In this document: positions 6,452 through 24,823 of the stretch, piece after piece
Position numbering within the stretch: position 1 is the stretch's first letter
How the letters are laid out: every line of letters begins with the position of its first letter
Source of the DNA: Candidatus Woesebacteria bacterium
GTDB lineage: Bacteria > Patescibacteriota > Microgenomatia > UBA1406 > GWC2-37-13
Reading direction: 5' to 3'
Assembly: GCA_017993865.1 (NCBI GenBank)
Contig: JAGOLU010000001.1
Span: 1 to 24,823, forward strand
Length of the DNA: 24,823 nucleotides
The notes under the pieces: model-generated
What the model was told of the DNA's origin: nothing
Databases searched by the model: none
Seen by the model: the letters and a program-made list of their open reading frames with translations, nothing else
Program-made: the position numbers and the translations under genes

Positions 6452-6458
6452 GAGCTCT

Positions 6459-6467
6459 ATTATAACA
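6459..6467 (-). promoter_or_regulatory. Extended -10 promoter (TG-t-TATAAT), likely leaderless
   Basis: TATAAT ends 7 nt before ATG 6451; no Shine-Dalgarno. Confidence 0.65.
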
Positions 6468-6508
6468 ATAATACCCCATGCAACCTTACATTTCTGCAAT
6501 CAAGATGT

Positions 6509-7258: not shown

Positions 7259-7264
7259 ACTGAT

Positions 7265-7273
7265 AGTATACCA
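7265..7273 (-). promoter_or_regulatory. Extended -10 promoter (TG-g-TATACT), likely leaderless
   Basis: TATACT ends 6 nt before GTG 7258. Confidence 0.6.
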
Positions 7274-7342
7274 ATACCCCGCATGTACTGTGTAGCAAAC
7301 TTTCTCCACATCGCACGAAACCATATGATTCTGTAGTTGTGC

Positions 7343-9037: not shown

Positions 9038-9045
9038 AGGGAAAT

Positions 9046-9054
9046 ATTGTACCA
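9046..9054 (-). promoter_or_regulatory. Extended -10 promoter (TG-g-TACAAT)
   Basis: TACAAT ends 8 nt before ATG 9037. Confidence 0.55.
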
Positions 9055-9221
9055 GGGAAGACACACTTCATTCTGGTCTAGCAATCAAAACATAGCAGAA
9101 AAGCCTTCTCCCCAAACTATCCACAAAAAATTCCATGAAAATATTAGACTGTCAGGAAGAGCTAAAGTATTATTAAAATAATATAGGTTATCCTATAACA
9201 AGATGGAAATTAAATATAGGC

Positions 9222-9250
9222 TTGACAAACAAAAAAGAGAGTACTACTAT
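9222..9250 (+). promoter_or_regulatory. Near-consensus sigma70 promoter P1
   Basis: TTGACA (9222-9227), 17 nt, TACTAT (9245-9250). Points into the intergenic region with no large ORF downstream; predicted TSS about 9255-9257. Confidence 0.75.
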
Positions 9251-9264
9251 TGAAGTATTCAATT

Positions 9265-9396
9265 CCGCTCAATTGGGGACGAGTAAGGAATCAGAAGTCA
9301 TGCAGAAGCTTTGGCATGATTATTTGAAGAAAGAACGTTAGCTAATACAAGAAAAAAGAGCATCATTACCGCTCGTAAATTGGGGACGACGAGTAA
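9265..9396 (+). repeat. Imperfect direct repeat CCGCTC-(GTA)-AATTGGGGAC-(GAC)-GAGTAA, two copies
   Basis: Copy 1 at 9265-9286, copy 2 at 9369-9396. Copy 2 has symmetric 3-nt insertions either side of the identical 10-nt loop. Confidence 0.9.
9300..9341 (+). CDS. Candidate 13-aa peptide MQKLWHDYLKKER
   Basis: ATG 9300 to TAG 9341. SD-like TAAGGA (9284-9289) 10 nt upstream, partly paired in hairpin 1. Translation unproven. Confidence 0.3.
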   Translation: MQKLWHDYLKKER

Positions 9397-9412
9397 TAAT
9401 GCTCTTCCTTCT
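9352..9412. terminator. Probable bidirectional intrinsic terminator
   Basis: Stem AAGAGCATCATTA...CTCGT / ACGAG-TAATAATGCTCTT. Six U follow the stem on the minus strand (A6 at 9352-9357); TTCCTTCT follows on the plus strand. Confidence 0.7.
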
Positions 9413-9436
9413 ATCGATATCTTTCTATATCGATAC
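9352..9436 (-). ncRNA. Candidate antisense sRNA (about 85 nt) from P2
   Basis: Begins at the predicted P2 TSS with a perfect 9-bp hairpin (TATCGATAT/ATATCGATA, 9412-9435). Ends in the terminator with loop CGUCCCCAAUUU plus U6. Confidence 0.5.
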
Positions 9437-9441
9437 CGAAC

Positions 9442-9470
9442 ATCCTATCAGTAGATATAACTCCTGTCAA
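9442..9470 (-). promoter_or_regulatory. Sigma70 promoter P2, convergent with P1
   Basis: Minus strand: TTGACA (9470-9465), 17 nt, TAGGAT (9447-9442), with extended TG-n; predicted TSS about 9434-9437. Confidence 0.7.
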
Positions 9471-9505
9471 TCACCATGGGTAGTGTAGTGATTTTTTTAG
9501 AGACA

Positions 9506-10975
9506 CTAATGAGTGCCTGCACCCTTCGCTGCATCCCCAATCATTGTGGTCATCATTTGAAAGAGTGCAAATATGCCCATCATGGCAATGTCAGAGCCAT
9601 GATCTTTAAAGAATTTAGAGAGCCAGGCAACTTTTTCTTTCATCTGCTCATCAGTCAGTCCCCGTGATTCTCCAAAATGTTTTAGGATAATGCTTGCAAG
9701 TGAGTTCTTGTCTTTAAGGTCATCTGCCTTCAATTCGAAAAATGCAGCTGGATCAGTAATATTTTCTAGCTTATCTCCCAATAGTTTTGCGAGATCTGCG
9801 CTCCCTCTCCCATCTTGCACATCTTGCAGAAGTTCAAAGACAGTGTTGCCCTGTTTCTTTCCGGCAAGTATATTTTTTACCAGGAGCTTTTCTTTTTGCA
9901 ACTGGTCTTTGTCAGCAGTAAGTTCCTTCTCTCTATCTGGTGTGATAGTCGGAGCCCGTAATGCGCTCTCGATTTGTGCGATATCTTTATCGATATCAGT
10001 AAGTCTCTCCTGTAATTTTGGCCTACCTGCGACTTTAATTATCTCCAAAATAGCTTCTGTGCTGGGGTCTTCGCCTCCTTCCATTGCGTCAATATATTTT
10101 TGTATAGTAGCAGAGTCGCCTGTCCTCGCTGTGTCTGCATCAACAAAGGTTTTCATTCTTACTGCTAGCCCCTTAACTTGATCTCTGGAAGGGCGAAGTT
10201 TGTCACCGGCTTCTGAATCGAGCAGTGTTGAATCAACTCCTTTTGCTGGTTCAAGCACATGGTTAGGGTCTGACGTATTGGCATGTTCTGCATAGGCAAT
10301 AGTCATAGGCCTCAGCACAGCCTTCACTCCTTGTTCTACTAGTCGTGGATTCACGGTAGCTGGTTTATCCAGACCAGACTGGATTTGGGAGTGTTGCGCG
10401 AGGATATAACTATCAACGAACGTTTGCTCATCGATAATGTGGGGACCCTTATTACCATCTGAATCCTGCAGGATACAACAGTACTGTATTGTGCCCTCGG
10501 CAGTACGGAGACGTGCATGTACAGTATGAATCTCGTATTCGCCCTTTTTGATAGCACTTGGTTGTTCACTTGACACGCCACCTGCGCGAACGTCATACGA
10601 AGGAATAGCTCTGCCGTTTACTACTCTAAACCTTGGTCTAGGCTCATTTGGTGCAAATCTACGATGCTCGTCGTCTGTCGCAGTAAAGTCAACCGTGGGA
10701 TCAGCAACGTTGATCTCATCTAAACTATTAAATATTTCTGCGCTCATGGCCTCACCCAATACCCCAAAAGCCGTTTCTGCAGAATTAGCGTTTTGCTTTT
10801 GTTCTGCGGTTGCGGTTTGTGTCTTTCTATGTGAGTCTACTGCCAACGATGTTATTAATCTTTTGGCTTTATCACTTTCAGATTCCTGAATCATGCCCTT
10901 TTCTGCACTAGGAGGCTTTACGACAGTCTCGATTGCATTGTGTGTAGGGGCATTCGCCCACGACTCAGTTGACAT
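9506..10975 (-). CDS. Hypothetical tail-anchored protein, 489 aa (disordered N-terminus, small beta domain, coiled-coil hairpin, C-terminal hydrophobic helix)
   Basis: Long ORF; ATG 10975 sits 6 nt after a -10 box. Heptads ERLTDIDKDIAQIESAL...DKDQLQKEKLLVKNIL. C-terminus IAMMGIFALFQMMTTMIGDAAKGAGTH. Confidence 0.8.
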   Translation of the reverse strand: MSTESWANAPTHNAIETVVKPPSAEKGMIQESESDKAKRLITSLAVDSHRKTQTATAEQKQNANSAETAFGVLGEAMSAEIFNSLDEINVADPTVDFTATDDEHRRFAPNEPRPRFRVVNGRAIPSYDVRAGGVSSEQPSAIKKGEYEIHTVHARLRTAEGTIQYCCILQDSDGNKGPHIIDEQTFVDSYILAQHSQIQSGLDKPATVNPRLVEQGVKAVLRPMTIAYAEHANTSDPNHVLEPAKGVDSTLLDSEAGDKLRPSRDQVKGLAVRMKTFVDADTARTGDSATIQKYIDAMEGGEDPSTEAILEIIKVAGRPKLQERLTDIDKDIAQIESALRAPTITPDREKELTADKDQLQKEKLLVKNILAGKKQGNTVFELLQDVQDGRGSADLAKLLGDKLENITDPAAFFELKADDLKDKNSLASIILKHFGESRGLTDEQMKEKVAWLSKFFKDHGSDIAMMGIFALFQMMTTMIGDAAKGAGTH

Positions 10976-11025
10976 AAGAAAAATATACTTGATTACTGCG
11001 TTCAATACAACTATATTTGTACTAT
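10976..11025. promoter_or_regulatory. Overlapping divergent sigma70 promoters in a 50-bp gap
   Basis: Plus: TTGATT (10989-10994), 17 nt, TATATT (11012-11017), 8 nt, ATG 11026. Minus: TTGTAT (11010-11005), 17 nt, TATATT (10987-10982), 6 nt, ATG 10975. Confidence 0.7.
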
Positions 11026-14000
11026 ATGGCGGAATTTGGCAATTCTTCGGGTGGCAACAAAAAGAAAGATGGTTTTACTCCTGGTTTCAGAGACAGAGGT
11101 GGTATGTGGGGTTTGATAAAAAGAACACCAGGGAGCGCAGGTGGAGCGGTGAAAGAAATCTTGGTTGGTCGAAAAAGGAACAATGATCCGGCTCCTCCAG
11201 ACAATCAGATCCGCAGAGATCAATTTGTGTATGACGTCGACAATAAACAAGGTGTTGTTGATGAGCATGGCAGACGCAAAGATTATGACAAGAGAGAGGA
11301 TATGAACCCCAAACTCGAGAAAGTGTACCCTTCCATGGAGGCATTCTGGCGCACTCACGCAGAAAATTTATGTAATTTGCGCCGCTCACATCCTGATTTA
11401 TTTAATGATAAGTCAAGCTATTTGTATCATCAATGGCTCCAGGTGCGGACATTTCTGACTGATGCAGGGCCTAATGCAGTAGGGCAGATTGATGAAAACA
11501 AAATTAAAGAGTACTTCCAGACTGCTGATGGCTACAACGAAACCATGCGCTACATGGAAGAAGAGGCCTTCCGGATAGAGTGCGCTAATAATATCGTTGA
11601 AATAACAAAAAATGGGTATAAACCAGGAGGTCTTGATGCAGTAAATTTGGGCTTGATAACACCCGCAGACAGGTTGGCAGGCATAGCACGCCTGGGCACA
11701 GGAGTAGTTTCCTCAGTAGAGGCACTTCTGCTTACTGTCTACTTTATGAAGACGTGGGGGGCGTTGGTGCCAAGCATGCTTGCTGCGGTCCCTGCTGCAC
11801 TTCTGACGACCATGGGCCCATGGCTTGTAGGTGGCGCAGTTGCTGCGATACCGTTCGCAGTGATGATCAATAGATTAGATCAGCTTTTTAAGACAGGTAC
11901 CCCTGAACAACTCATGCTACAGTGCAACAGCATGATTCAAACCATACAACGCTCTTCAAATTATGCGGGAGAAAGAGCGTATTTGCGTGGTATGTACGGG
12001 ATTGACCCAGGCGAGCTGCGTGTTCCACAACCAATACCTAATGCTCCACTTGGCACCCCTGTTCCACCTACGACTTTTGCCCTGGGAGGAATAACAACAG
12101 GAGGATGGGAAGGTAGTAAGAAGCAGCTATTAAAAATAAAGGAAGCGAGAAGAATATTCTACGACCAGGTGATGGACATTCCCGAACAAAGTATGTTCGG
12201 GTTGCCCGAAGAAGCATTTATTGATAATCAAGGAAACTACCGATCACAGGTGACTCCTGAAGGAGAAGGGGTTAAATATCAGCAGGAAGTCTGGAGTAGA
12301 TTTGAAGAGTTGGGAGGACATTTTATAAGAGAGCAGAATTCAGCTGGAGCTGAAGTATTCCGCAGGCTTACTGCGGTCGAATCGCTCAGCAGGTTTCAGC
12401 AAGCACGCAGAGAGGTAATTATGGGGCAGGTGCAAGTAAAGGCTGAGCTAATTATCAACAGCGATCGTCAAATTACTCTTAACGAACAAGAAAAAGTTTT
12501 GGGGGCTAGAAAGGCGCTCATAGACAAACAGAATGGGCAAGTGCGTACCAAAGAAAAAGAGCAACAAAAGAAAAACATTGCTCTTGCCACAGATATAAAT
12601 GAAGGTAAAGATGGCAAGCCCGGCTTAAATCAGTATGCAGAAGAGTGGAAGGGCACGACGACGGGGAGTGCAGAAAGTAGATTGAAGGGAGTGATGGACG
12701 TGCGACAAGAGGTATATGACAAAGTTTCACTCATTATTCCCTTTACCCGACCAGTTGGAGAGATATCAGTTGCTGAGATTGCGGCAGCAATTAAAGAACT
12801 GAAAGACAAGAAAATTGGAATCCCAAGTAAAAAGGGAACGTTGGAGAATAAAAAGAAGGAGTTGGTTGACGAAATTAAACTTACACCACCTAAGGTGAAA
12901 GTGGGAGTAGACGCTAAGAAAGGGGATATCATGGCAGATAATCCCGAACTTGAAAGACTTAGAAACGAGCATCAAAGAATTATCGACGAAATAGACAAAG
13001 TAAGAGCGCAAATAACCGAATTGCAGTCTCTCAGCATTAAGTTGCAAAATGAACGAGCAAAGTACGACCCTTCGAATGAACATGGCAAAGCATTTGTAGA
13101 AACATTCAAAAAAATGAGCGAGGCATACGCGAAACTAGTGGATGCTGGTGGGAGAAGAGACGCAGTGGTGTTTGGACCAGCAATAACGGCAGCTGATGTG
13201 TCGACATATTTAGGCGGTTATCCTGGGTCATTTAGTGTGCTTGATGCTGGAGGTGCTGTATCCCTGAGGAGTGGCATGTCCGGATTGATGACCACGCTTG
13301 CAAACGAGGCAAAGCCTCCATTGTGGAACGAAGATGAGAACGAATTTCATGAGCATAGAATGACTGTTATTTACGCTGTGGCTTATGCACGCGCTATTCC
13401 TAAACTAGATGCACTCGCAGCAGCTCCGACCAGCGGAGCTAAAGAATACATTGCTGGAGGAGCCACAATTGCTGCTCTTTTTCAAACCGGATTGGCAGAC
13501 GGCAAATTTAACGAGCTTACTTTGCTGGCGAGCAATCCTACGGAGCTTGCAGGTTTGGGGGTTGTTGGAGGGGTAGATATGTTAGCGGGAGATAATGTTG
13601 GATTGCGCGCATACGCACAAGCTCGAAATGACATACTAACCAAAACCATCGAAGAGTTGGTGCTCGAACATGACCGTAGTAAGCAAGTTGCTGTTAAACA
13701 AGAAGAAGATATCGATAAGAAATACGATGCGCAAGAAAGCAGGTATCAAGTGCTGATTGACCTTATCAAAGCGGAAAAAGGTGCTGATCAATCGGCCAAA
13801 GTGAGCTCTCAAGTCTTTATGCGCGGGCTGACAGGAATTGCTTCTGTTACCCATCTTACTGATAGGAGGGTTCTTGCTTTTCGAAGTCAGCTCGAACAAG
13901 ATATATACTTAGATTATGAAAAAGAGTTCATGTTACAACATCCAGATTTCCCTCCAGCTATGTTAGAGTTTTTGGATGTTGTGTTTCAGTTCAGAAAGAA

Positions 14001-14403
14001 CACAGAAGGTAAGGAAGAATTGAAAATAATTTATGACTTACTTATAAAGATGAGTGCGATAGGCAATATCGTGGAAAGGAGTCCTCAAATCATGTTGGCG
14101 GACATAATATATCAATCGACTCCTGGCATTCAGGAAATGCTCAATATTACGCGCAACGAGGGGATTAGTGGGCAAGTACAAGGTGGGCCCCCCATAGGGC
14201 CAACGTGGGATCAGATCGTGCTGCAAGCGTTCCAGAATCGACAAATCGGGTATAGGCTTCCCGTTCCGCCAGTGGTGCCACAATTATATCGACCATGTCA
14301 ACCACACCCATATTCAACAACCGAAATGAATAACATCTTTTTGTCAATACAACACATGATTATCGAGAAAGCCGCCAACAATGGGGTAGTTGCGACGCTG
14401 TAG
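11026..14403 (+). CDS. Large hypothetical protein, 1125 aa, with internal Gly/Ala-rich hydrophobic region and long coiled coils
   Basis: Long ORF, first gene of a three-gene operon (gaps 23 and 3 nt). No Sec signal. Hydrophobic stretch 11674-11868; heptad regions about 12480-13070 and 13600-13780. Confidence 0.85.
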   Translation: MAEFGNSSGGNKKKDGFTPGFRDRGGMWGLIKRTPGSAGGAVKEILVGRKRNNDPAPPDNQIRRDQFVYDVDNKQGVVDEHGRRKDYDKREDMNPKLEKVYPSMEAFWRTHAENLCNLRRSHPDLFNDKSSYLYHQWLQVRTFLTDAGPNAVGQIDENKIKEYFQTADGYNETMRYMEEEAFRIECANNIVEITKNGYKPGGLDAVNLGLITPADRLAGIARLGTGVVSSVEALLLTVYFMKTWGALVPSMLAAVPAALLTTMGPWLVGGAVAAIPFAVMINRLDQLFKTGTPEQLMLQCNSMIQTIQRSSNYAGERAYLRGMYGIDPGELRVPQPIPNAPLGTPVPPTTFALGGITTGGWEGSKKQLLKIKEARRIFYDQVMDIPEQSMFGLPEEAFIDNQGNYRSQVTPEGEGVKYQQEVWSRFEELGGHFIREQNSAGAEVFRRLTAVESLSRFQQARREVIMGQVQVKAELIINSDRQITLNEQEKVLGARKALIDKQNGQVRTKEKEQQKKNIALATDINEGKDGKPGLNQYAEEWKGTTTGSAESRLKGVMDVRQEVYDKVSLIIPFTRPVGEISVAEIAAAIKELKDKKIGIPSKKGTLENKKKELVDEIKLTPPKVKVGVDAKKGDIMADNPELERLRNEHQRIIDEIDKVRAQITELQSLSIKLQNERAKYDPSNEHGKAFVETFKKMSEAYAKLVDAGGRRDAVVFGPAITAADVSTYLGGYPGSFSVLDAGGAVSLRSGMSGLMTTLANEAKPPLWNEDENEFHEHRMTVIYAVAYARAIPKLDALAAAPTSGAKEYIAGGATIAALFQTGLADGKFNELTLLASNPTELAGLGVVGGVDMLAGDNVGLRAYAQARNDILTKTIEELVLEHDRSKQVAVKQEEDIDKKYDAQESRYQVLIDLIKAEKGADQSAKVSSQVFMRGLTGIASVTHLTDRRVLAFRSQLEQDIYLDYEKEFMLQHPDFPPAMLEFLDVVFQFRKNTEGKEELKIIYDLLIKMSAIGNIVERSPQIMLADIIYQSTPGIQEMLNITRNEGISGQVQGGPPIGPTWDQIVLQAFQNRQIGYRLPVPPVVPQLYRPCQPHPYSTTEMNNIFLSIQHMIIEKAANNGVVATL

Positions 14404-14426
14404 TATTATCAAGTATTTGAACCACT

Positions 14427-14771
14427 ATGCCAAAATCATTGGAAATACACGACATTATTCGGATTTTACCCTTTGCGGAAGTCTTCCGGACAAAGTTGCT
14501 TGAACTCTACCCTAACAAACTAGACGAGGATCGCAGACTCGCTTTGGAGCGATATCTCTGGAAAGCGTTTTATTTGTATTTTGACGCACTGTATGAAGAA
14601 AACTTACAATTGATGATCAATGACACTAAAAACAACCTTCCTCCAGATTACCATGACCAACTATTAGCAAAGACACATGAACAAATAAACCAGGGTGTGG
14701 TTACCACTAAAGCAGATGCACAAATACATGTCCTGAGAGGCGAGCTACAAAAGTTAATAACTCCTTCATAA
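14427..14771 (+). CDS. Small all-alpha hypothetical protein, 114 aa
   Basis: Fills the gap between two giant genes; amphipathic helical pattern, no TM segment. Confidence 0.8.
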   Translation: MPKSLEIHDIIRILPFAEVFRTKLLELYPNKLDEDRRLALERYLWKAFYLYFDALYEENLQLMINDTKNNLPPDYHDQLLAKTHEQINQGVVTTKADAQIHVLRGELQKLITPS

Positions 14772-14774
14772 CGC

Positions 14775-17700
14775 ATGAGTATATTCGAGACTATCTCCGA
14801 CGGAGCACATTCAGCATTTGATAAAGCAAGATCTTTGTCTAGTAAGTTTCCGATACAGGCTGCCTTAGATCAAGCTAAATGTCTAACAGAGTACCTCCCT
14901 TGGAGGAAGGGGGCAGATCAAGATGGTGCCCCCGCCGAACCATCGTATGAAAACCCTCTCTTTGTGGAGTCAGGGACAGTATCTCTTGACGCAGCAGCTG
15001 CTGATGTGGAGGTGGTAGGGTACAGAAGATATGCAGATGATTTGCAAGAACAGCAAGAGACAGGCTTGAGAGATGATGGTGCGGCAATGGTGGAAACTGT
15101 CGCGCAGTGTAATAGCGGCCAAACCTTAGGAAGATCTTTCATTACAAGAGCCAGTGCTGAAGAGCGGGTGAATGTACACGCACAAGGGTTTATCGATGGA
15201 ATACGTACAGATCAAACATTAATTCCTCTCATTGAAACAGCCGCGAGAGTAGGAGACTTGCGACAACTAGAGGCGCAAGTGCAGGCACAACTTGATCCTG
15301 AGCTAAGCATGGAGTACCGGGCTCAAATGGTTAACGCAGTAACCGCGACACTGGATCAGGAATATATCGGACGGTTTAGAGGTGCTCTTGATCAGGGCAA
15401 TCCCCATCCTTCTGCACGAATCACCAATGTTACTTTGTCCGCTCGAGATTTTGTTAATGAACTATTGAAAGAGTTGGAGAGAATATCAAGTGCTCCAGAG
15501 AGAGAACTCGATGTAGAGATAGCGTCATCACCGACTGAGATACCCCCCGTGGGAGGTGACTCAGCAATGGAGGATGCCCTAGAAGATGAGGATGTAGATG
15601 CGGTCGTGGAGCAAAGTAAGCCCTCAACACCTCCAGAAGCTCCAGACTTGCGTACATGGATAAAAGGTAAATTAGCAGTTACGGGTTTGTCGGAGGAAAC
15701 TGCCCAAGATTTATGTACTCATCTACTCCACACTCTCGAGCAATGGGGTGTTGCTCAAAGATATCAGGAACAAGAATATGGAGCCGGTAGACATACGTCT
15801 ATAGCAAACCTGGTGGTCGCACGAGTGAGAGAACAATATACCGATATCCCCAATTTGCCTGATGTCTTGGGAGTGCATGCGCGCTTGATGGAGGTTGTTT
15901 CGATATTGCAAAGAGTGCAAGACACGGATCCTGAAGCTCGAGCTCAAATCGGCCACATATTTACAGAAAGGATTCATGCTCTCCTGGATGCACTTCCCGC
16001 AACAGACGGAGAATCCGATGTAGATACTGCTACCGCAGCAGAGAGAACGATGCTCGATGCAATTGAAGCACAAATTGCGATTTACGCTGATCCTGACGCC
16101 GACATAGATGTGGTACACGGCGCGATTGAGGAAGTCAGACGTTTGGTTGAACCTGATCAAACCGAGGATGAAGCAGAGCCAACACCTATGGAAACACCAG
16201 GAGCCACACCACTACCCACACGTATTATTGAGGCAGAATCAACACCAGAAAGAACTCAGACCTACTCAATGGATATGAACGTTACCGTTCCTATGGATCA
16301 TGAGCCAGAGCGCCAGGTCTTCGTTTTCAATGGATCTCCGTTGGTCGTTGATGGTTGTCAAGCATCTGTGCAAATATACGGTCAAAATACAGAACCTAGA
16401 GTAGATTTTAGATTCCAAGGTGGAAGTGATTGGACTCAATCACTCACTCCTTTGATAGAATTTGATTCAGCAACTCAGCCCAACGCGGTCCCGATACCTA
16501 TCGGCACAAGTGGGACACATGCATATAAGATGCACCTTGAGAGGGTTGGTCCAATAATGAGTTCGTCAAGTGGCGTAAGAGAACTAGGTTTTCGCGCTGT
16601 GTGTGAAGTAATACAAGTAGGTGGGGGTTTAGTGGAAGAGCCAGAAAGGACAACTGGTTCATTACCACCAGATCAATTCGCGCGTGTTGAGGCGGAAATA
16701 GCCTCTCTTGGCGCAACCGGAGAAACACTGCGAGGACCGCTCATGACAATTGCTAAGCTTGGGTGGCGTGGAACTTCAGAAGAGTTAGAGCTCATTCGAA
16801 GAGTCCAAGCTCTCGCGCAAAAGTCAAACATACCAATTGTGGGGCCGGGTGTAGCAGGGTTTGCGAGTATTTTAGAAGGAACGTTAAATATGCGAGAGGG
16901 GGAAACTTTTCGTGACAGATTAGCGATAATGAAACCACACGTAGCTGCGTGGCTTAAACATTATATCGAGGGCACAGTAGATCTAGCCACTCTTATTGCA
17001 GGAGCAGAGACAGGTGGGGCAATAGGAGAGCTGAGAGACATCGCTGCTAGGGGAGCTCTCTCTACAGAAGCAGCACGAGAACTACCAAGTCTAGTTATGA
17101 GAGCAATTGCAGAAAAACTATTGTCAGGAATTCCGGAAGAGGACTACAGTAGAGAAGCGGTGGCGCTTCATGCAGTGGCGCGCATATTGGTCGAAGCAAC
17201 AAAACCCGGAGCACCATTGGCAGATTTGAGTGAAGGGTTGACCATATCAAATGACAGTATCCTAACTCGACTCAGGAGCGACACAACTGCCCCAGCTCCA
17301 GTCTCCCCGGCTGCCCCTGTGCAACCACCTCAGACGCCCATTGCAGTACTACCCTCCACACCCATTCAAGAGACAGCTGCCCCACAAATAAGAGAACACG
17401 CGTTCCGAGTGAGGAGCGGTAGAGATCTTGTGGGTGAAATACAGCAAGGATTGAAGGAAGCCAAGGCAAATGAGGCACGTATCATCATCAGTCCGGATGT
17501 GTTTAAAGATTTTCTATTAAGTCTTCCCTTGCCAAGCGGGGCAAAAATAAATGAGGCTACGAATGTCTCGTTAACACTGGAAGGAGACAGACCCGTGCTC
17601 AGGCTTGAGGGGTCTTTTGCAGCACCGGGTGGCACCTCCAAGTTTGATATTGCGGTAGGTTCCGATGCTCAAGGAAGACTAGTTGTCCTGAGAGATCCAG

Positions 17701-17873
17701 AATTCAATTTCGCATTATTACATAAAGCGTTTAGCAAACTAATAAGAGAGAAGCTATCTAACCTATCTACCTTGTTGGAGCAAAACGTTGGCGAAAAGGT
17801 TGGTAATGGTTGGTCACTTTCGCGTACGGACGTTGAAAGCAGTCAGTTATCTCTTTCCTTGAAGCGAAATTAG
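14775..17873 (+). CDS. Large acidic multidomain hypothetical protein, 1032 aa (helical blocks, Pro/Glu linkers, central beta domain, C-terminal alpha/beta domain)
   Basis: Long ORF; no signal peptide or TM segment. Pro-rich linker about 17281-17395 precedes a 158-aa terminal domain. Confidence 0.85.
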   Translation: MSIFETISDGAHSAFDKARSLSSKFPIQAALDQAKCLTEYLPWRKGADQDGAPAEPSYENPLFVESGTVSLDAAAADVEVVGYRRYADDLQEQQETGLRDDGAAMVETVAQCNSGQTLGRSFITRASAEERVNVHAQGFIDGIRTDQTLIPLIETAARVGDLRQLEAQVQAQLDPELSMEYRAQMVNAVTATLDQEYIGRFRGALDQGNPHPSARITNVTLSARDFVNELLKELERISSAPERELDVEIASSPTEIPPVGGDSAMEDALEDEDVDAVVEQSKPSTPPEAPDLRTWIKGKLAVTGLSEETAQDLCTHLLHTLEQWGVAQRYQEQEYGAGRHTSIANLVVARVREQYTDIPNLPDVLGVHARLMEVVSILQRVQDTDPEARAQIGHIFTERIHALLDALPATDGESDVDTATAAERTMLDAIEAQIAIYADPDADIDVVHGAIEEVRRLVEPDQTEDEAEPTPMETPGATPLPTRIIEAESTPERTQTYSMDMNVTVPMDHEPERQVFVFNGSPLVVDGCQASVQIYGQNTEPRVDFRFQGGSDWTQSLTPLIEFDSATQPNAVPIPIGTSGTHAYKMHLERVGPIMSSSSGVRELGFRAVCEVIQVGGGLVEEPERTTGSLPPDQFARVEAEIASLGATGETLRGPLMTIAKLGWRGTSEELELIRRVQALAQKSNIPIVGPGVAGFASILEGTLNMREGETFRDRLAIMKPHVAAWLKHYIEGTVDLATLIAGAETGGAIGELRDIAARGALSTEAARELPSLVMRAIAEKLLSGIPEEDYSREAVALHAVARILVEATKPGAPLADLSEGLTISNDSILTRLRSDTTAPAPVSPAAPVQPPQTPIAVLPSTPIQETAAPQIREHAFRVRSGRDLVGEIQQGLKEAKANEARIIISPDVFKDFLLSLPLPSGAKINEATNVSLTLEGDRPVLRLEGSFAAPGGTSKFDIAVGSDAQGRLVVLRDPEFNFALLHKAFSKLIREKLSNLSTLLEQNVGEKVGNGWSLSRTDVESSQLSLSLKRN

Positions 17874-17882
17874 TCACCCCCA

Positions 17883-17911
17883 TTGACTTACTCTTCATAA
17901 TTCAGTAGCAT
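17883..17911 (+). promoter_or_regulatory. Sigma70 promoter, likely leaderless
   Basis: TTGACT (17883-17888), 17 nt, TAGCAT (17906-17911), 5 nt, ATG 17917. Confidence 0.6.
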
Positions 17912-17916
17912 AAGGT

Positions 17917-19674
17917 ATGCCACTTCAACTGGTCTGGATTGGACTCAAACGGTATCTCGACACTGGACGAAAAATCTTCTTTGTTGGCGTAACATTCCTT
18001 GCAATATTTTATCTCTTCTTTGCGCTCGTTAATGTCGATAATAAACGGAACTCTACGGGGCCTACTGCAGCCCAAATCGAGGAAGCGCGCCGGCTCAAAT
18101 TGTATGACACATACGATGTTAAAAATGATCCAAAAGATGATGAAGAAGGCGTGCTTGTTCGTGAGTTAACACGTGGATTTTTATGCTCCACCACCGGCGA
18201 GCTTTGCACAGGAAACCCTGCAGAAGCATATAAATATAAAGAGCAGTCTTTGGCATACAAAGCATCAGGGATAATCGCGGAACCACTCAGACATCCCCCC
18301 TCCTCATTTTACTACTGGGCACGAGGGACTCTGGAGAACGCAGGATTTGTACCCAAAACCTATGCACAAGGCATTGGATTTGCAGCGCTCACCAGCTTTC
18401 AACCCATTTGGAAAGTATTCCGTAATCTTGCGTATCTTGTGATCGTTGTGGTGATTATGGTTGTGGGGTTTATGGTGATGTTTAAGGTGGGCGGCGGCGG
18501 CAAAAATGCCGTCACTCTTGAGTCGGCGCTTCCCAAACTAGTCATTGCACTCCTTGCGATATCAATGTCGTATGCACTTGCGGGGTTTTTGATAGATGTG
18601 ATGTATATGGTTATTGCATTGGTGATCAACATGCTCGGGCCTATATCAGGCATGGATCCTGCTACCCAAACCAAGATGATGGGAAGTGTGATGACTGGTT
18701 CCCCAACAGACTTGTTCTTTATGCTTATGGGCAACATTGGTCAATCAGATGGAAATTATTACAATCTTGCCGGCTCACTTTACAGTCTTGTGCCGGGGTA
18801 TATGCAAACAGTTATTAACGCAGTTGTGAATAATCTTGTAATCGGAGGGCTTGGGGAATGGAAAACTCAGAAAACTCCAGACATCAGCACTACACCAGGA
18901 AGTAATGTGAAAAATGTAGCTACATTCATGGGACGAGCATTCACATTAGTATCGAGAAAAATTTGGGGCCTCAGATCTCTGACTGATAGACTCGGCGATT
19001 CGGGTAGTGGTCCTGTTCCTGTAAGCACCATCGCAAACATAATTTATATTATTTTTGGATATATTGTAGGAGCACTTATCGGAACAGTAATGGTTAAAGT
19101 TGCCATCATGTTCATTCTTATACTAGGTATGATTGTGATATTTTTCCGCTTATTCTTTATGCTTATCATGAACTATGTAGACATAATTTTATCGATACTC
19201 ATCGCGCCATTGTCGTTGATGCTTGAAGCTATTCCAGGGCAAAATGCGTTTGTCAACTGGATACGAGGGCTTGCGGTTAACCTTGGAGTGTATCCGATTG
19301 TTTTGGTAGTAATTCTGATAGCGCGTGCAATTATGGATACCGGAGGCACGATATCACCTATGTGGTCTCCTCCGTTTGTGTCTACCATCACCGATCAGAC
19401 AAGCTTGCAAACTCTCATTAGTGCAGTTCTGGTCTTCTCTTTGCCCAGTATCATAAAAACATATAAACAAAAGCTCAAGCCGGCGTCGATCACAGACTCT
19501 ATGGGAATAGGGCTCGGGTCGCTCTTTGTGGGTGCCTCGCCGATACTTCGTGGTTCTTCGACAGTAATGGGTGCTTCTGGAATTACAACAGCTATGGCGA
19601 AACGAGTGACCGCGCCTCTGCAGACACTCTTTAAAGACCAAATGCAACAGACAGTAAAAATAGCGAACCCATGA
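17917..19674 (+). CDS. Polytopic membrane protein, VirB6/TrbL-like (CPR type), 585 aa
   Basis: Motif IWKVFRNLAYLVIVVVIMVVGFMVMF...ALPKLVIALLAISMSYALAGFLID and a second TM block (FFRLFFMLIMNYVDIILSILIAPL...AFVNWIRGLAVNLGVYP) resemble VirB6-like proteins. Recognised by eye only. Confidence 0.6.
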   Translation: MPLQLVWIGLKRYLDTGRKIFFVGVTFLAIFYLFFALVNVDNKRNSTGPTAAQIEEARRLKLYDTYDVKNDPKDDEEGVLVRELTRGFLCSTTGELCTGNPAEAYKYKEQSLAYKASGIIAEPLRHPPSSFYYWARGTLENAGFVPKTYAQGIGFAALTSFQPIWKVFRNLAYLVIVVVIMVVGFMVMFKVGGGGKNAVTLESALPKLVIALLAISMSYALAGFLIDVMYMVIALVINMLGPISGMDPATQTKMMGSVMTGSPTDLFFMLMGNIGQSDGNYYNLAGSLYSLVPGYMQTVINAVVNNLVIGGLGEWKTQKTPDISTTPGSNVKNVATFMGRAFTLVSRKIWGLRSLTDRLGDSGSGPVPVSTIANIIYIIFGYIVGALIGTVMVKVAIMFILILGMIVIFFRLFFMLIMNYVDIILSILIAPLSLMLEAIPGQNAFVNWIRGLAVNLGVYPIVLVVILIARAIMDTGGTISPMWSPPFVSTITDQTSLQTLISAVLVFSLPSIIKTYKQKLKPASITDSMGIGLGSLFVGASPILRGSSTVMGASGITTAMAKRVTAPLQTLFKDQMQQTVKIANP

Positions 19675-19681
19675 GTGCGAG

Positions 19682-19747
19682 CTTCCTAGGAAGTAGGAGA
19701 TTGATAGAGCAGTTGTCTATCATAATGCGTCAGCATCACAGATGTTG
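19682..19747. terminator. Three short hairpins between convergent genes (possible weak bidirectional terminator)
   Basis: CTTCC-TA-GGAAG (19682-19693); TGATAGA/TCTATCA (19702-19722); CAGCATC/GATGTTG (19731-19747). No U-tract. Confidence 0.3.
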
Positions 19748-19772
19748 CAGTAATAACATATAGGCATGCGTC

Positions 19773-21542
19773 TTATCCCAACCCATATATCCGTAGTAGG
19801 TTTACTCCCACAAACCTGAGGAGGAAGATAGAGAAGAGGATGATGAGCAAACCAACAACACACTGTGTGATAAGTTTCTGTGCCTTTTGGACTTTAGCGG
19901 ACTCGCCAGCGCTCAGCTGGAATTGGATTGCCCCATAGATAATACAAAGGATCGAGAATGCCCCAGCGAAAGTGATACCCCACCCAAGCACTCCCTCCGC
20001 AAGGAACCGCTCGACCTTATCCATAGGCATACAGCCAAGGGCAGATGGATACCCACCGTACAACGCACACGATAAACATCCGATGTATTGGCGCACAAAA
20101 GGATTCTTTTTAAACGTATCTAGTTCGGCATTTGTGATGGGTGGGGGATTCAAAGGTATGGAATGAACACCAAAGAACCTGACCATAAATATCTCAGGTA
20201 TGTATACATTCGAGGAAATCCGTTTGAGGTTATCTGCCCAATACCGTACCTCATCTGAGTTAAAGAAGCCATCTATTTCTGACTTTATTCCTTGTTGAAA
20301 TTGATCAATAGTATCTGTATCAGTAATACCTCCGAAAAGGAGTTTAGCAAATCTTTGCGAGCCATTTCCATTCTCATCTGGGGCTGGTAACAGAGCTCGC
20401 CATTGGGCTCCGCCCGTATTCCCATCTTCAATCCCCGCGATGAATCGGGTACACAACAATACTGCTGCGGTGCCGGGTCCTGAATTTACATCAACACATT
20501 TACATTTGGTTGGATCAAGCCCAGAGATAGATCCATCGGCATTAAACGTAAGTGCTCCGGGGTCGAGGAATTGAGGAGTCCCATCATTACAAAGTAGGGT
20601 TACATCAGGGAGATTATTTTGGTTTGTTACGAGCCTATTTAATGAAGCTATACCATTATAGAGTGGGGTTAAGAATGCATTTCCAATTTTGCAGCCTAAA
20701 TTTTTAAGCGGACCATTTCCGGCCGCAGTGCCTTCGCCTTTGCGAGGATCTACAGGCTTTCTACTACCCATATCAAAACCGTTGATATGGTAGTGTAATA
20801 AGCCAAAATTTCCTGCAACATTTGAGTTGATGAAATATCTGCGAGTAAGGTAGGTTGGTAGGGCAGGATCATCATCTACGGTAAAGTACCATGTGATATT
20901 TAGTTTTATTTCATTTAAGACTGGTGGATCAACGGTCACTTGAAATGTTTCCTCAATTATGGGCATTCCTCCCACTGATCCATTAGAATCATCTGTGGGC
21001 AAAACGCCGTTTCTATCAAGATACTCGACTAGAGTTTGTTCTTCTGGTGGGTCTCCAGGTACCAAAGCCGGCACTGGAGGAACGATTAAGACCCTTTCTC
21101 CACTGGGAGAAAGAACGTCTTCATCGACGTTACAGTTTTTTGGCTTAAAATTAAGGACGGTATTAGGAATTCCACTATCGGTGCCAAGTTTGCTGCGTGA
21201 TATTGCCCCAGGATCTTTACAATCACCTCCGTATGAACCAGGGTTAGGTATCACACAACAACGCCTCGTATTTTTTCCGTTTACATCGGGATCACATTGG
21301 ATGCCATCTGCACACTTCATATATTCTGTTCCAGGTATTATTTGCCCAGTGGCCGGGTCTGCAAATGCCTGACATGCTGTTCTTAGCCCTTCGATCAGGT
21401 TTGGTGCACAGTCTGCATCACTCGCCTGGACAACATGAGTGGTTGGGAATGTCACAAGAGACAGCAGAAATACTACCGTGAGAGCAAATCGTAGAAAATA
21501 AACAAGCCTGGCTCGAGTAGATTTCTGAACATCTATCATCAT
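19773..21542 (-). CDS. Exported Cys-rich protein with C-terminal VirB2/TrbC-like pilin domain, 589 aa
   Basis: Signal peptide ending VVQA; 16 Cys before the terminal hairpin. C-terminus ALGCMP...QFQLSAGESAKVQKAQKLITQCVVGLLIILFS matches the pattern of the two small pilins. Confidence 0.75.
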   Translation of the reverse strand: MMIDVQKSTRARLVYFLRFALTVVFLLSLVTFPTTHVVQASDADCAPNLIEGLRTACQAFADPATGQIIPGTEYMKCADGIQCDPDVNGKNTRRCCVIPNPGSYGGDCKDPGAISRSKLGTDSGIPNTVLNFKPKNCNVDEDVLSPSGERVLIVPPVPALVPGDPPEEQTLVEYLDRNGVLPTDDSNGSVGGMPIIEETFQVTVDPPVLNEIKLNITWYFTVDDDPALPTYLTRRYFINSNVAGNFGLLHYHINGFDMGSRKPVDPRKGEGTAAGNGPLKNLGCKIGNAFLTPLYNGIASLNRLVTNQNNLPDVTLLCNDGTPQFLDPGALTFNADGSISGLDPTKCKCVDVNSGPGTAAVLLCTRFIAGIEDGNTGGAQWRALLPAPDENGNGSQRFAKLLFGGITDTDTIDQFQQGIKSEIDGFFNSDEVRYWADNLKRISSNVYIPEIFMVRFFGVHSIPLNPPPITNAELDTFKKNPFVRQYIGCLSCALYGGYPSALGCMPMDKVERFLAEGVLGWGITFAGAFSILCIIYGAIQFQLSAGESAKVQKAQKLITQCVVGLLIILFSIFLLRFVGVNLLRIYGLG

Positions 21543-21548
21543 CCGTTC

Positions 21549-21557
21549 ATAATATCA
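21549..21557 (-). promoter_or_regulatory. Extended -10 promoter (TG-a-TATTAT), likely leaderless
   Basis: TATTAT ends 6 nt before ATG 21542. Confidence 0.5.
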
Positions 21558-21581
21558 GAATACCGTATATTTGTATAGACA

Positions 21582-24500
21582 TCACTTTTTACTTGTCGCC
21601 TTTTTGGCTGCGTCGGTGACATACGACACAAGTGCGAAAGCAAGAATATATGTTAGGTATTCAGGGATAAGTTCTTGTGCCACATGGAACCAACTGGCCT
21701 GGAAAAAGCTCGCAAACCCTTCAAGCTGTGCGGGGTTAATGCCGCCTGTTTTGGATATTTGCAGCAGGAACTGTCGTATTGTCACTGCATCCATACCTTT
21801 GTGCTCAAAGTTTGTCCACGCTTTTGAGAACAACGATTGTCCTTCTTTGTCAAACATCGTCTTCCACCGACCAAGCGCATTGCGTACTTCTTGTTTGTTC
21901 GCGAGTCCACTGAGTTGCATTTTGGTTAGGCCGAGCACGACAGGCATAAATATTTCGGGATTCCCGATTTCATCACTGGATATTTTTCGGAAATTCGTGC
22001 CGAGCGACTTGAGCTTACCCCATGTTTCGGGTGTACCTTTGCGTGCTGCGGCTTTGAGCATGAGGAGCATGTTGCTATCTGCTCCCTCTGGTGCGCGGGC
22101 GTCCAATATAAGCTTGTATTGCTCCGCAACACTACACTCTCCGGTAGAGCGGTAGACCATCGTGTCATCTCCGTTCAAGAATATTTTATGTACTTCACTA
22201 TTGTCTGCCATGAAGGGGATAGCTCCCAAAAACCCTTCATCCCACATGCGTCGTAGCCAACGCGCACGATTGATGCGTTTTTCATAATTTGCAAGATAGC
22301 GTTCTGCAGCTACTCTTTCTTCTCCCGAAAGCCCTGACTTTATTGTGCCATCTTGGTTTAGATACTTTCTTCTCAGCAAATGTTCTGTTTCTTTTTTCTT
22401 ATCTCCTTCTTCTCCGGTGGTATTTATGTCAGGTGCCGCCCCCATCTCGGCGATGATGTCTTTGCGCAGCAGTACTGCACGTTGTATCCGCAGCCCCAAC
22501 ATCTTTTTACTCTCACTTCCCGGTCCTGATGCACTGAGCAGATCGTGCAACACTTGTTGTGCAGGCACCTTACCCTCCAAAATCTGCTGTGCGGTTTCGG
22601 GTTGATATTTTTTGACCATGACTCGGATGAGTGTTTCGTCGTCCATGACATACCCACGTCCACCATTCACGCTACTTCTGGTCTGATCCCAATTGTCTCC
22701 ATAGATATTGAGCCCATCGGTGCTTTTTTCCCACAATTTACGTTTCTGGAGGATTTCTTCATCAATTTCTCCTCGGAGTTCTCCTTGGACATACGCCAAA
22801 TCATCGGTAACCTGGTCCCAAATCTCATCTTTTGCCGCTTGACGTTCGTCTGATCTAGTAGAGCCGAGTTTATTGCTTAATTTTGCATCAAGGCTTGCTT
22901 GAATACGGAGTGTTTCTGCAAACGATCCCGTGCGCTTATTCGAGTCGCTGGCCTCATCAAAATATTTGTTTTTTATCTGTGTGCTCAATCGGAGTCCGTT
23001 CTGTTCATCTTGGTTACGCAACCGATACAAAAACTCGACAGGGGAGCGCTCTGCAATAACCACAAGCATGGCGTCGTACATCATTGGTTTGAGAAGCTGT
23101 CTCTTGAGGTTTGTAACTGCGATACCACCCACCTTTCGATCTTTAGCATTTTTACCAGATTCTTGTTTAACTGCACCCTGATAAATTTCGGCGGCGCGCG
23201 CATGGAAAAGCCGAATAAATTCTTCTTTCGATTGTGCTCGTCCAGTTTCGGAACCAAACATATTGCTGTTGTGCATTTTCTCGGTAAACTTAAACGGATC
23301 TAAGTTGGTAGGACCTTTGTTAAGATTGCCAAACAGATAATTGTGCGGGAGAAATTTGCCAAACTCATGCTGATCATTCAGATACCGCGTGTAGAGATAG
23401 TCAATGAAGTTGTTTACTGACTCTTTGTTATTTAGATTACCTTCTTTGTCGTAGTCGATCATTTCAGCTATATTCTCATCTGCGAATGCATTAATTTCAT
23501 TGACTCCCACATTTTCTACTGACTTCCAAATACGAGTGAGACCATCAACCTTTTTGGTAGACTGACCAGTTTCGTCAATCACCGTATATTCAGCATGAAA
23601 TTGAGGTTGGCCGCCCCCCATGAGCCTGGTATAAAGCTGCTTGTCAATAACGCCCATATTCGCCATGCGTCGCCACCCACGCAGCGTATCGTAACCACCT
23701 GCTTTAAGCCTATTGATAGGAGCAAACATTTCGGGCAAATCTCCACGGAAATGCTCAGTCATATCCCACGCAAGACGACCCTGTGACTCGTGTTTTTGGT
23801 CATCAAAGACTTTATATCCTTCTTTTCCTGCGGCAAAGGGGTCCCACTTACCTTGTTGGTTGAAACCTGGCATGTTATACATAGGCTGCCAGTACGCGCC
23901 TTTCAAAAACAAATCATGATCCCATGTTGAGGGGAAACGCATCGCTCTTTGGAACGGCGCAAAAACGTTGTTAAACATTTGTTTATCATCCGCTTGTCCT
24001 TGGTAGCCGCGGGTTGGGTTCGCGTATGAAAATATCTGTTGAAATCTAAATCTTCCGGCAAAGACGATGGTGAACGCATGTTGCAAGACTCTTCGGCGTT
24101 GCCAGTCGGGGAGATGAGGGTAATTTTCCTCCAAAAACTCTTGTACCTGGAGAACAAGAGTTCTGCCTCCTGCACCTCGATTTAGGAAGATTTCATTAAA
24201 GAATTTTCCCTCGTCTTCGTTTATCCATCCTTTTTCACCCATGCGCTTTTTCAAAATAGTTTCGATAAAGGACGCTGCGCGGGTAATATAGGTGTTATCT
24301 TCCATCGAATAAATGCGATCCATGTTACGTGAGGTCATGGCAGTTTTGAGATGTTCACCAATGCTTTGGAAGAACTTCTTTTGTGCATCAGGAGAACCCA
24401 TGTGTGAGAGGTAGCGGTATTGATGGCCTGCCTCAAAAAATCCGTCATCTGCGTTGATTTCTTCTTTCAACTCGTTCAGGAAATCATACATAGATTTCCC

Positions 24501-24823
24501 GCGTTGTTGTGTGCGCAGTGAGCTGAATGTACTAATGTCTTTACCGAGAGAAGGGTCATACAACGCCTGAATACCACCCAAACTTGTCACCGTAAAATCC
24601 AGATGACCACCCTCGATGTTTGTTGATTGGTGGGCCAAGTTACCAAGCATGGAATTGAGCTGGCGGAACATCTCGGCAGGGTTTGATGTCTGATCTCCGC
24701 CGTGTTGAAGTGCTTGCTGATAGGCTTCCTTCGGTTCATCTCGCATGTTGAGATAGTTTCGGTATACATTGCTCACCATGAAAATTACCGACTCACGAAC
24801 GTGTGTTGCGGTTTCAGATGCAA
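21582..24823 (-). CDS. 5'-truncated very large helical hypothetical protein (>1079 aa) with C-terminal hydrophobic anchor
   Basis: Frame stays open from ATG 24779 to the window edge, so the start lies outside. C-terminus YLTYILAFALVSYVTDAAKKATSKK. Confidence 0.85.
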   Translation of the reverse strand, partial: ASETATHVRESVIFMVSNVYRNYLNMRDEPKEAYQQALQHGGDQTSNPAEMFRQLNSMLGNLAHQSTNIEGGHLDFTVTSLGGIQALYDPSLGKDISTFSSLRTQQRGKSMYDFLNELKEEINADDGFFEAGHQYRYLSHMGSPDAQKKFFQSIGEHLKTAMTSRNMDRIYSMEDNTYITRAASFIETILKKRMGEKGWINEDEGKFFNEIFLNRGAGGRTLVLQVQEFLEENYPHLPDWQRRRVLQHAFTIVFAGRFRFQQIFSYANPTRGYQGQADDKQMFNNVFAPFQRAMRFPSTWDHDLFLKGAYWQPMYNMPGFNQQGKWDPFAAGKEGYKVFDDQKHESQGRLAWDMTEHFRGDLPEMFAPINRLKAGGYDTLRGWRRMANMGVIDKQLYTRLMGGGQPQFHAEYTVIDETGQSTKKVDGLTRIWKSVENVGVNEINAFADENIAEMIDYDKEGNLNNKESVNNFIDYLYTRYLNDQHEFGKFLPHNYLFGNLNKGPTNLDPFKFTEKMHNSNMFGSETGRAQSKEEFIRLFHARAAEIYQGAVKQESGKNAKDRKVGGIAVTNLKRQLLKPMMYDAMLVVIAERSPVEFLYRLRNQDEQNGLRLSTQIKNKYFDEASDSNKRTGSFAETLRIQASLDAKLSNKLGSTRSDERQAAKDEIWDQVTDDLAYVQGELRGEIDEEILQKRKLWEKSTDGLNIYGDNWDQTRSSVNGGRGYVMDDETLIRVMVKKYQPETAQQILEGKVPAQQVLHDLLSASGPGSESKKMLGLRIQRAVLLRKDIIAEMGAAPDINTTGEEGDKKKETEHLLRRKYLNQDGTIKSGLSGEERVAAERYLANYEKRINRARWLRRMWDEGFLGAIPFMADNSEVHKIFLNGDDTMVYRSTGECSVAEQYKLILDARAPEGADSNMLLMLKAAARKGTPETWGKLKSLGTNFRKISSDEIGNPEIFMPVVLGLTKMQLSGLANKQEVRNALGRWKTMFDKEGQSLFSKAWTNFEHKGMDAVTIRQFLLQISKTGGINPAQLEGFASFFQASWFHVAQELIPEYLTYILAFALVSYVTDAAKKATSKK

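Follow-up and report, generated by a model that had tools for sequence, protein, structure and literature searches.

A VirB6-like membrane protein, a pilin and a giant protein beside a hypervariable four-gene cassette in Candidatus Woesebacteria

Seven genes in two adjoining units

The 24,823 bp analyzed here (hereafter, the window) make up an entire contig, C74, of a metagenome-assembled genome from a Candidatus Woesebacteria bacterium (GCA_017993865.1, contig JAGOLU010000001.1; genome 0.87 Mb, 69.8% complete), and positions 9506–24823 hold the seven open reading frames (ORFs), P0001 to P0007, that concern us. The count of six large genes and one small gene in a preliminary description of this DNA, made from the sequence alone, was right. 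All seven ORFs are conserved as proteins in relatives, and for this reason we take them to be real genes. The region consists of two adjoining units. One, at 17917–24823 and running on into contig C34, is an envelope module encoding a VirB6-like membrane protein (P0005), a protein with a pilin-like C-terminus (P0006), and a giant protein (P0007, hereafter also BIG). The other, at roughly 9629–17873, is a cassette of four genes (P0001–P0004).

Scans of all seven proteins against Pfam and NCBIfam returned only chance-level matches, apart from a weak match of P0006 to PF18895, and nothing meaningful came up in the PDB when the sequences of P0001, P0002, P0004, and P0006 or the profiles A1 and A4 were searched against it. 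The same domain scans detected no ATPase, relaxase, or integrase within 9506–24823, as the preliminary description had stated; no genome-wide search for relaxases was made. Comparisons with relatives drew on an order-level survey of 41 genomes and on a set of 20 loci from relatives plus 80 loci from GTDB genomes. The family of the source genome is labeled f1, another family f2, and a sister family f3.

P0007 (21582–24823, minus strand) is open at the contig end and represents here the C-terminal 1079 codons of a protein of about 1519 amino acids (aa). The last 127 nt of the window (24697–24823) reappear unchanged at the start of contig C34 (positions 1–127 of L043, the stretch of C34 to which all coordinates with this prefix refer), and the missing ~440 N-terminal residues were located on C34 at L043:3–1442 (minus strand) by tblastn with full-length homologues, which measure 1483–1530 aa. 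C74 and C34 are neighboring contigs, and the assembler break falls inside this giant gene. On the 5′ side of P0007, C34 carries on the same strand a small ORF for a membrane protein with a CxxC motif (L043:1439–1711, minus strand), followed by jag/khpB, yidC, and leuS.

A conserved chromosomal module and its tie to a type IV secretion motor

The P0005 gene (17917–19674, plus strand) encodes a polytopic protein of 585 aa with at least 6–7 transmembrane helices (Kyte-Doolittle peaks at residues 20–38, 171–189, 208–240, 391–409, 451–469, and 495–513). Its AlphaFold2 (AF2) model is all-helical and of mediocre confidence (predicted local distance difference test, pLDDT, 64). The name ‘VirB6-like’ given to it in the preliminary description is supported by profile–profile alignment, together with the presence of PrgI, VirB4, and pilin neighbors in sister lineages (see below). 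With hhalign, a 40-sequence profile of the P0005 family matched a profile of nine Microgenomatia proteins that hit TrbL, the first of which scores 29.4 bits and so passes the cut-off, at a probability of 96.7% and an E-value of 4.3e-10 over 88 columns (P0005 residues 140–235). The hidden Markov model (HMM) of the P0005 family likewise matches TrbL-passing proteins at E-values of 5.5e-9 to 3.6e-6, and the language-model neighbors of P0005 include a cluster named TrbL/VirB6 (0.94) and TrbL_3/4. When 251 genomes of the class were scanned in six frames with PF04610, eight matches fell on P0005 orthologues, one of them in the same genus, all below threshold (14–22 bits against a cut-off of 25.9). 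An equivalent scan with PF19590 (TrbL_3) gave 0 matches in 201 phylum genomes and is uninformative, since its controls gave no signal either. On these profile comparisons, P0005 is a very divergent protein of the TrbL/VirB6 superfamily that lies outside the Pfam family as defined.

The family is large and widespread. It comprises 6632 clusters at 50% identity, and a homologue, mostly in one copy, is present in 39 of the 41 genomes of the order. It also diverges much faster than VirB4, with 25–35% identity between families versus 62–68% for VirB4. A shape search of the atlas with the P0005 model recovered only the protein's own cluster (template-modeling score, TM, 0.45) and noise, and a complex prediction for P0005 with the pilin module scored 0.00, which is no answer and no evidence either way.

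P0006 (19773–21542, minus strand; 589 aa) is composed, from N- to C-terminus, of a signal or anchor, a variable Cys-rich extracellular domain of about 450 aa, and a 115-aa pilin hairpin at residues 475–589. The protein has 18 Cys, its hydropathy peaks lie at residues 13–31, 517–535, and 557–575, and the two helices of the hairpin are joined by a short charged loop, SAGESAKVQKAQK, that matches the SGGEEKK motif of pilin paralogues. The score of P0006 against the PF18895 HMM is below threshold (14.6 bits, or 19.2 in the genome scan, with a cut-off of 26.6). Aligned with hhalign, a profile of the C-terminal module (37 sequences) matched the genome's own PF18895 pilins, five of which exceed the cut-off, at a probability of 98.3% and an E-value of 1.8e-14 over 62 columns, and BLASTP linked P0006 to paralogues on contigs C47, C11, and C100 (1.8e-8 to 9e-4). 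The C-terminal 115 residues are strongly conserved (51% mean column identity over the 37 sequences). Judged by these alignments, the C-terminus of P0006 is a VirB2-type (PF18895) pilin, and the ‘pilin fusion’ of the preliminary description holds. The N-terminal domain of about 450 aa is genus-specific and variable at the DNA level; at other loci the pilin in this slot measures about 250 aa, versus 589 aa here. In most of the 80 loci the pilin gene is convergent to the P0005 gene.

The genome encodes at least nine PF18895-type pilins, four of them in tandem on contig C47. Two paralogues lie back to back in the window at 1817–2227 and 2231–2929 (minus strand; 136 and 232 aa; 22.4 and 23.1 bits by hmmscan), 15 kb from the VirB6-like gene, and a Fic-domain gene (2853–3896) adjoins them.

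P0007 lacks a signal peptide, and its C-terminus consists of a hydrophobic helix with a basic tail (...KKATSKK) behind it. The same architecture, with a hydrophilic signal-less N-terminus and a C-terminal hydrophobic helix before a basic ...GKKK tail, is found in nearly all of about 60 BIG homologues. The giant proteins are joined by BLAST only transitively, and a positional orthologue is present in nearly all loci. The AF2 model of P0007 is confident (pLDDT 80.7, predicted TM score 0.86). Its best match in a VIA structural search had a Z of 6.4 and was confined to a helical bundle at 883–1036, where Z values of 5–6.4 are background for helical proteins; a language-model atlas search with a full-length BIG homologue gave no usable match. 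We considered that the giant proteins might hide an ATPase and dropped this idea for lack of a conserved Walker A motif. With no Walker motif, domain, or fold match to go by, the role of BIG is a guess from its position.

The small ORF between jag and the BIG gene encodes 61–111 aa in about 20 loci of the order, with the conserved motif TR(P/S)xC(L/A)xC(G/A)N..EF...SSL. It belongs to no Pfam family and is not YidD-like, and in this genus its stop overlaps the start of the BIG gene by 4 nt. Possibly, this small CxxC membrane protein also belongs to the module.

The three genes P0005, pilin, and BIG keep their place. In the 20 + 80 loci, the order that recurs with hardly an exception is a C39-like peptidase gene, a 150-aa gene, and P0005, facing pilin, BIG, small ORF, jag, yidC, and leuS. 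In other genera, the plus-strand pair before P0005 encodes a ~370-aa protein with a transmembrane segment and a Peptidase_C39_2 domain and then a ~150-aa protein. The minus-strand side facing P0005 encodes the pilin of about 250 aa and a giant protein of 1120–1550 aa, followed by the small ORF, jag, yidC, and leuS. The trio of P0005, pilin, and BIG holds this fixed chromosomal site across Microgenomatia of the Roizmanbacteria/Woesebacteria type and is a conserved chromosomal module. In a close relative's 1.24-Mb contig rpmH adjoins yidC, and the block is origin-proximal because it sits in the classical rpmH–yidC–jag neighborhood. The pilin and BIG genes lie directly downstream of yidC–jag on the same strand and are likely co-transcribed with them.

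HMMs of the peptidase (U2) and ~150-aa (U1) genes do not match P0002–P0004. Their orthologues in this genome form a duplicated pair on C34 at L043:8280–11220 (minus strand), which comprises membrane-anchored Peptidase_C39_2-like proteins (398 and 285 aa) with a partner of about 147 aa; the pair is displaced here to the far side of yidC–leuS, versus upstream of P0005 in other genera. The position of the C39-like peptidase before a VirB6-like gene suggests a VirB1-like, wall-cutting role. The usual upstream neighbor in other genera is a ClpB/ClpC-type double AAA+ protein with an N-terminal extension of about 250 aa (1250–1370 aa in all; e.g., L032:6647–10405, minus strand, and also in L027, L033, L037, and many of L054–L133), which is absent from this window.

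In several lineages the trio also has PrgI, VirB4, and pilin arrays as physical neighbors. Within f3, the sister family, 1–4 kb separate the orthologue of P0005 from a PrgI/VirB3-like gene (PF12666, 36.9 bits), a gene for a 228-aa protein, and VirB4 (PF19044, 1.5e-34; PF12846; weakly PF03135). In eight further families of Microgenomatia, a P0005-family gene stands beside arrays of 2–7 PF18895-like pilins, and in seven of these eight a large protein of 880–1280 aa is encoded beside it. At two loci (L155 and L159) PrgI, a TrsD-like protein, and VirB4 belong to the same cluster as the P0005-family gene; at two others (L157 and L154) PrgI alone was present within the stretch fetched around it. PrgI (PF12666, 33–37 bits), a protein of 215–228 aa, and VirB4 are encoded consecutively in 12 loci of relatives. 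VirB4 occurs once in each of 40/40 relatives, at 62–84% identity, and nearly all genomes searched have VirB4, P0005, and pilins together. In f1 and f2, PrgI, a 215-aa protein, and VirB4 form a separate operon, 80–180 kb away in near-complete genomes, so that the expectation of the preliminary description, that the motors would be found elsewhere, is borne out in relatives of the same family.

Because the trio lies beside PrgI(VirB3)–VirB4 and pilin arrays in sister lineages, we interpret the unit at 17917–24823 as probably the envelope half of the known Patescibacteria type IV secretion system (T4SS), a non-conjugative, chromosomal apparatus, here split from its motor. The preliminary description had proposed structural parts and cargo of a contact or secretion machine for the entire region; this is supported for P0005, P0006, and P0007, but not as written for P0001–P0004.

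Several results weigh against this interpretation. P0005 and 39 relatives match no TrbL family of Pfam even at E ≤ 1. A Foldseek search of the PDB with the P0005 model returned nothing, and the top match of the exhaustive VIA search, R388 TrwI/VirB6 (7o3v_F; Z 7.4, root-mean-square deviation 4.2, 89 residues, P0005 residues 148–239), is tied with unrelated helical hairpins for a model of poor quality (pLDDT 64). The fold of P0007 is unmatched (TM ≤ 0.1 by Foldseek against the PDB, ≤ 0.18 in the ESM Atlas), and the giant proteins share neither a conserved Walker A motif nor any domain. An HMM built from 60 Roizmanbacteria BIG proteins misses the positional counterparts in other orders, and BLAST provides no link either. 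The tail anchors that the preliminary description assigned to P0001 and P0007 are plausible, as both proteins have a terminal helix and lack a signal, but these helices are only moderately hydrophobic (19-residue Kyte-Doolittle value, KD19, of 1.41 at residues 472–490 of P0001 and 1.34 at 1033–1051 of P0007). VirB4 was not found in the source genome, which is only 69.8% complete, and tblastn detected neither PrgI nor the 228-aa protein there. Finally, a scan for promoters and terminators gave counts equal to those in shuffled sequence and thus no evidence for operons.

The source genome does have weak coupling-protein-like matches on contigs C86 and C92. Its AAA_10 matches were considered as VirB4 and rejected, being FtsK.

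The distance between trio and motor admits a second explanation, namely that the trio is an independent pilus-like or envelope system, derived from a T4SS and tied to YidC-dependent membrane biogenesis, that no longer works with VirB4. The 80–180 kb that separate it from the VirB4 operon in f1 and f2, its position directly downstream of yidC–jag, and the far faster evolution of P0005 relative to VirB4 (25–35% versus 62–68% identity between families) are all in its favor. However, the clustering with PrgI and VirB4 in f3 and several other families, the joint occurrence of VirB4, P0005, and pilins in practically every genome searched, and the fact that no other ATPase is associated with the trio make us regard such a system as quite improbable.

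Some relatives carry a second, distant VirB4 (~33% identity, 730 aa; G025:C2:21500–25868, and also in G031, G015, and G036), which adjoins a 587-aa protein above the Pfam TrbL cut-off. These two genes probably belong to a separate, possibly mobile T4SS. Together with the T4SS-like parts in the window, they are what could be said for reading the 15-kb stretch as a mobile element, that is, an integrative and conjugative element or prophage remnant with conjugation-like genes. The trio nevertheless sits at a fixed site beside jag, yidC, and leuS across the order, in about one copy in 39/41 genomes. No integrase or relaxase is in view at 9506–24823, domain scans of this interval revealed no phage gene, and GC content is even over the whole window. 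A fixed site together with a single copy in nearly all genomes made us reject the mobile element, whose probability we consider very low.

The hypervariable cassette

The four genes to the left of P0005 behave differently. In comparison with a close relative, the flanking genes are well conserved (jag 91%, yidC 81%, P0005 80%, P0006 74%, and P0007 86% identity), and P0001–P0004 share 21–34% identity with their counterparts, over partial lengths. Similarity at the DNA level to five relatives stops at 9486–9628 and resumes at 17871–17881. The left edge falls inside the last ~40 codons of P0001 (9506–9628), so that its C-terminal helix is retained in conserved DNA, and the right edge of the dissimilar block falls at the stop codon of P0004. 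The pattern over the 8.2 kb at about 9629–17873 fits a replaceable cassette between two conserved edges. Window positions 9104–9628, an intergenic stretch ahead of the cassette, form the left edge of the variable block; nowhere else to the left of P0005 is the DNA conserved (here 80%) with the close relative. Farther left are an ATP-dependent DNA ligase, two GT2 glycosyltransferases, and a DUF6798 membrane protein (3910–5667 and 5693–9064), ordinary genes with no evident tie to the locus.

P0001–P0004 were found only in genomes of the same genus. The preliminary description had treated the seven genes as one unit and had named a lack of co-conservation as a result that would speak against it; such a lack is what we observe for these four genus-restricted, hypervariable genes. 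Five or more genomes of the genus share the order P0001 (minus) and P0002, P0003, P0004, and P0005 (all plus) even though the sequences are replaced, and P0002–P0005 are co-directional with gaps of 3–43 nt.

P0001 (9506–11005, minus strand; 499 aa), the left gene of the cassette, has no known domain, and its true start is perhaps the ATG at 10975. It shares 25–29% identity with same-position orthologues in close relatives. P0002 (11017–14403, plus strand; 1128 aa, ATG at 11026) has long helical regions and a hydrophobic stretch of 60 aa at residues 223–284, in keeping with the hydrophobic feature reported in the preliminary description, and belongs to no known family. It is represented by only 5 clusters in a collection of 5.8 billion proteins, and a language-model atlas search with it gave no usable match. 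P0003 (14427–14771, plus strand; 114 aa), soluble, helical, and without a family, is the most constant member of the cassette, with 113–125 aa, the same position, and 32–51% identity throughout the genus. P0004 (14775–17873, plus strand; 1032 aa) belongs to no family and, as first described, is acidic (isoelectric point 4.7), with no transmembrane helix. Its slot is the most variable, and relatives hold there proteins of 628 + 803, 939, 1223, or 1396 aa, or other genes.

The pattern of similarity within the cassette does not follow that of P0005. The best matches to P0002 and P0003 (42% and 51%) come from the relative whose P0005 is the most divergent (63%), and P0002 is least similar (21%) in the closest relatives. 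This distribution suggests exchange rather than steady divergence, with extreme diversifying selection as another possible origin of the cassette. Two loci with an identical P0005 protein differ in the P0002 slot, which holds 277 + 815 aa in L165 and 1118 aa in L163. This difference is probably a frameshift or assembly split, and it could be real strain variation.

We infer that the cassette would most likely encode exchangeable accessory proteins of this T4SS, acting as its substrates or as factors of host specificity. Any functional tie of cassette to machine is held tentatively, since adjacency and gene spacing are its only basis, and this counts against the interpretation of the region as a whole. 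It is also possible, if somewhat doubtful, that P0001–P0004 are lineage-specific, fast-evolving genes unrelated to the T4SS module, perhaps forming a strain-variable surface, defense, or polymorphic-toxin-like island. Their absence outside the genus would agree with such an island, as would the fact that in most Roizmanbacteria the slot holds the C39-like peptidase and 150-aa protein, or ClpB; so would the sharp boundaries, which resemble those of a variable island, and the failure to find a family, PDB relative, or paralogue for any of the four proteins. Yet an unrelated island accords less well with a gene order that at least five congeneric genomes retain despite sequence replacement, with the co-directional arrangement and 3–43 nt gaps that join P0002–P0005, or with the cassette proteins themselves, which yielded no toxin, immunity, integrase, or transposase domain.

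A more specific version of the accessory role has the cassette encoding swappable T4SS substrates or host-specificity factors, exchanged by recombination at the two conserved edges as hosts change, with BIG as their cytoplasmic docking platform in place of a coupling protein. The cassette proteins would then be large and signal-less, with hydrophobic hairpins or C-terminal helices, and would enter the envelope of the host bacterium by delivery or insertion. We consider this version unlikely. If it were true, a secretion system essential for the epibiotic life of candidate phyla radiation (CPR) bacteria would have its first candidates for cargo and recruitment parts.

Proposed mechanism and comparison with known systems

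In the model that we favor, the pilin would be inserted into the membrane, and the VirB6-like P0005 would take up the pilin or pilins and build a pilus or conduit. Energy would come from the PrgI(VirB3), TrsD-like, and VirB4 operon, which in this family lies at a separate locus. The Cys-rich N-terminal domain of P0006 might decorate the surface of the pilus, and BIG, tethered at the cytoplasmic face by its C-terminal helix, might be a scaffold or docking part specific to Microgenomatia. The cassette proteins would be accessory factors or substrates of this machine. According to the R388 model, VirB6 serves as a platform at which VirB2 is drawn out of the membrane and polymerized. The step in which P0005 assembles the pilin is drawn from this platform model and from reviews of the Patescibacteria systems (PMC12857230).

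In Microgenomatia, VirB6 has been called ‘scarce’, ‘suggesting extreme sequence divergence’ (Quinonero-Coronel et al., 2025, PMC12102498; PMC12857230). In our reading, the ‘missing’ VirB6 of this class would be the large P0005 family of 6632 clusters, too diverged for current HMMs, which always travels with a pilin and a protein of about 1200–1500 aa with a confident, unmatched fold. BIG is a candidate new part of the machine, and the cassette beside P0005 supplies a defined set of candidates for cargo or specificity proteins. In the one species tested, epibiotic growth requires the Patescibacteria T4SS, and the T4SS locus of Southlakia epibionticum ML1 was reportedly described by Wang and colleagues in 2023.

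The likeness of P0007 to TssL/DotU (IcmH) of the type VI and type IVb secretion systems is meant as an analogy, not as evidence of kinship. In each case a helical bundle in the cytoplasm leads into one membrane helix at the C-terminus, and TssL chains are among the VIA matches to P0007 residues 887–1016 (Z 5.4 and 4.4, which is background level for helical bundles), but P0007 is about eight times larger. Type VII secretion (T7SS) loci of Firmicutes have a variable region downstream of essC. Our cassette resembles it in that a conserved machine gene stands beside a block with sharp boundaries that is replaced between close relatives. Unlike the essC region, it has no toxin or immunity domains, LXG/WXG motifs, or known effector signature, and its proteins are only putatively secreted.

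A further parallel comes from the conjugative T4SS of R388 (PDB 7o3v; Mace et al., 2022), where VirB6/TrwI and VirB2/TrwL, like P0005 and P0006, pair a polytopic inner-membrane protein with a two-helix pilin. The P0005 residues that match TrwI in the VIA search (148–239) are the same that align to the TrbL-hit proteins, in a structural match at background for helical hairpins. P0005 differs from TrwI in having no detectable sequence identity to it, about twice its length, and a 130-aa insert between the transmembrane bundles. The organism here is also a monoderm and has no VirB5 or VirB7–10.

The closest comparison is with the T4SS of Patescibacteria, which is chromosomal, origin-proximal, and relaxase-less, with arrays of VirB2 (PMC12102498, PMC12857230). 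The locus described here is likewise chromosomal and origin-proximal, with no relaxase seen in the window, and it shares a VirB6-like membrane protein and VirB2-like PF18895 pilins in many paralogues (at least nine in this genome). A monoderm-type motor (PrgI/VirB3, TrsD-like protein, and VirB4) is shared as well, as seen in relatives only. It departs from the known systems in that the VirB6-like protein, pilin, and giant protein are split from the motor operon, P0005 escapes TrbL/VirB6 HMMs, and the adjacent pilin bears a 450-aa N-terminal domain. Neither a C-terminally anchored partner of about 1500 aa nor a four-gene hypervariable cassette was found in the descriptions of Patescibacteria T4SS that we consulted. 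The secretion system itself is already known as the Patescibacteria T4SS; what is particular to this locus is its 589-aa pilin, its displaced peptidase pair, and, above all, its sharply bounded cassette.

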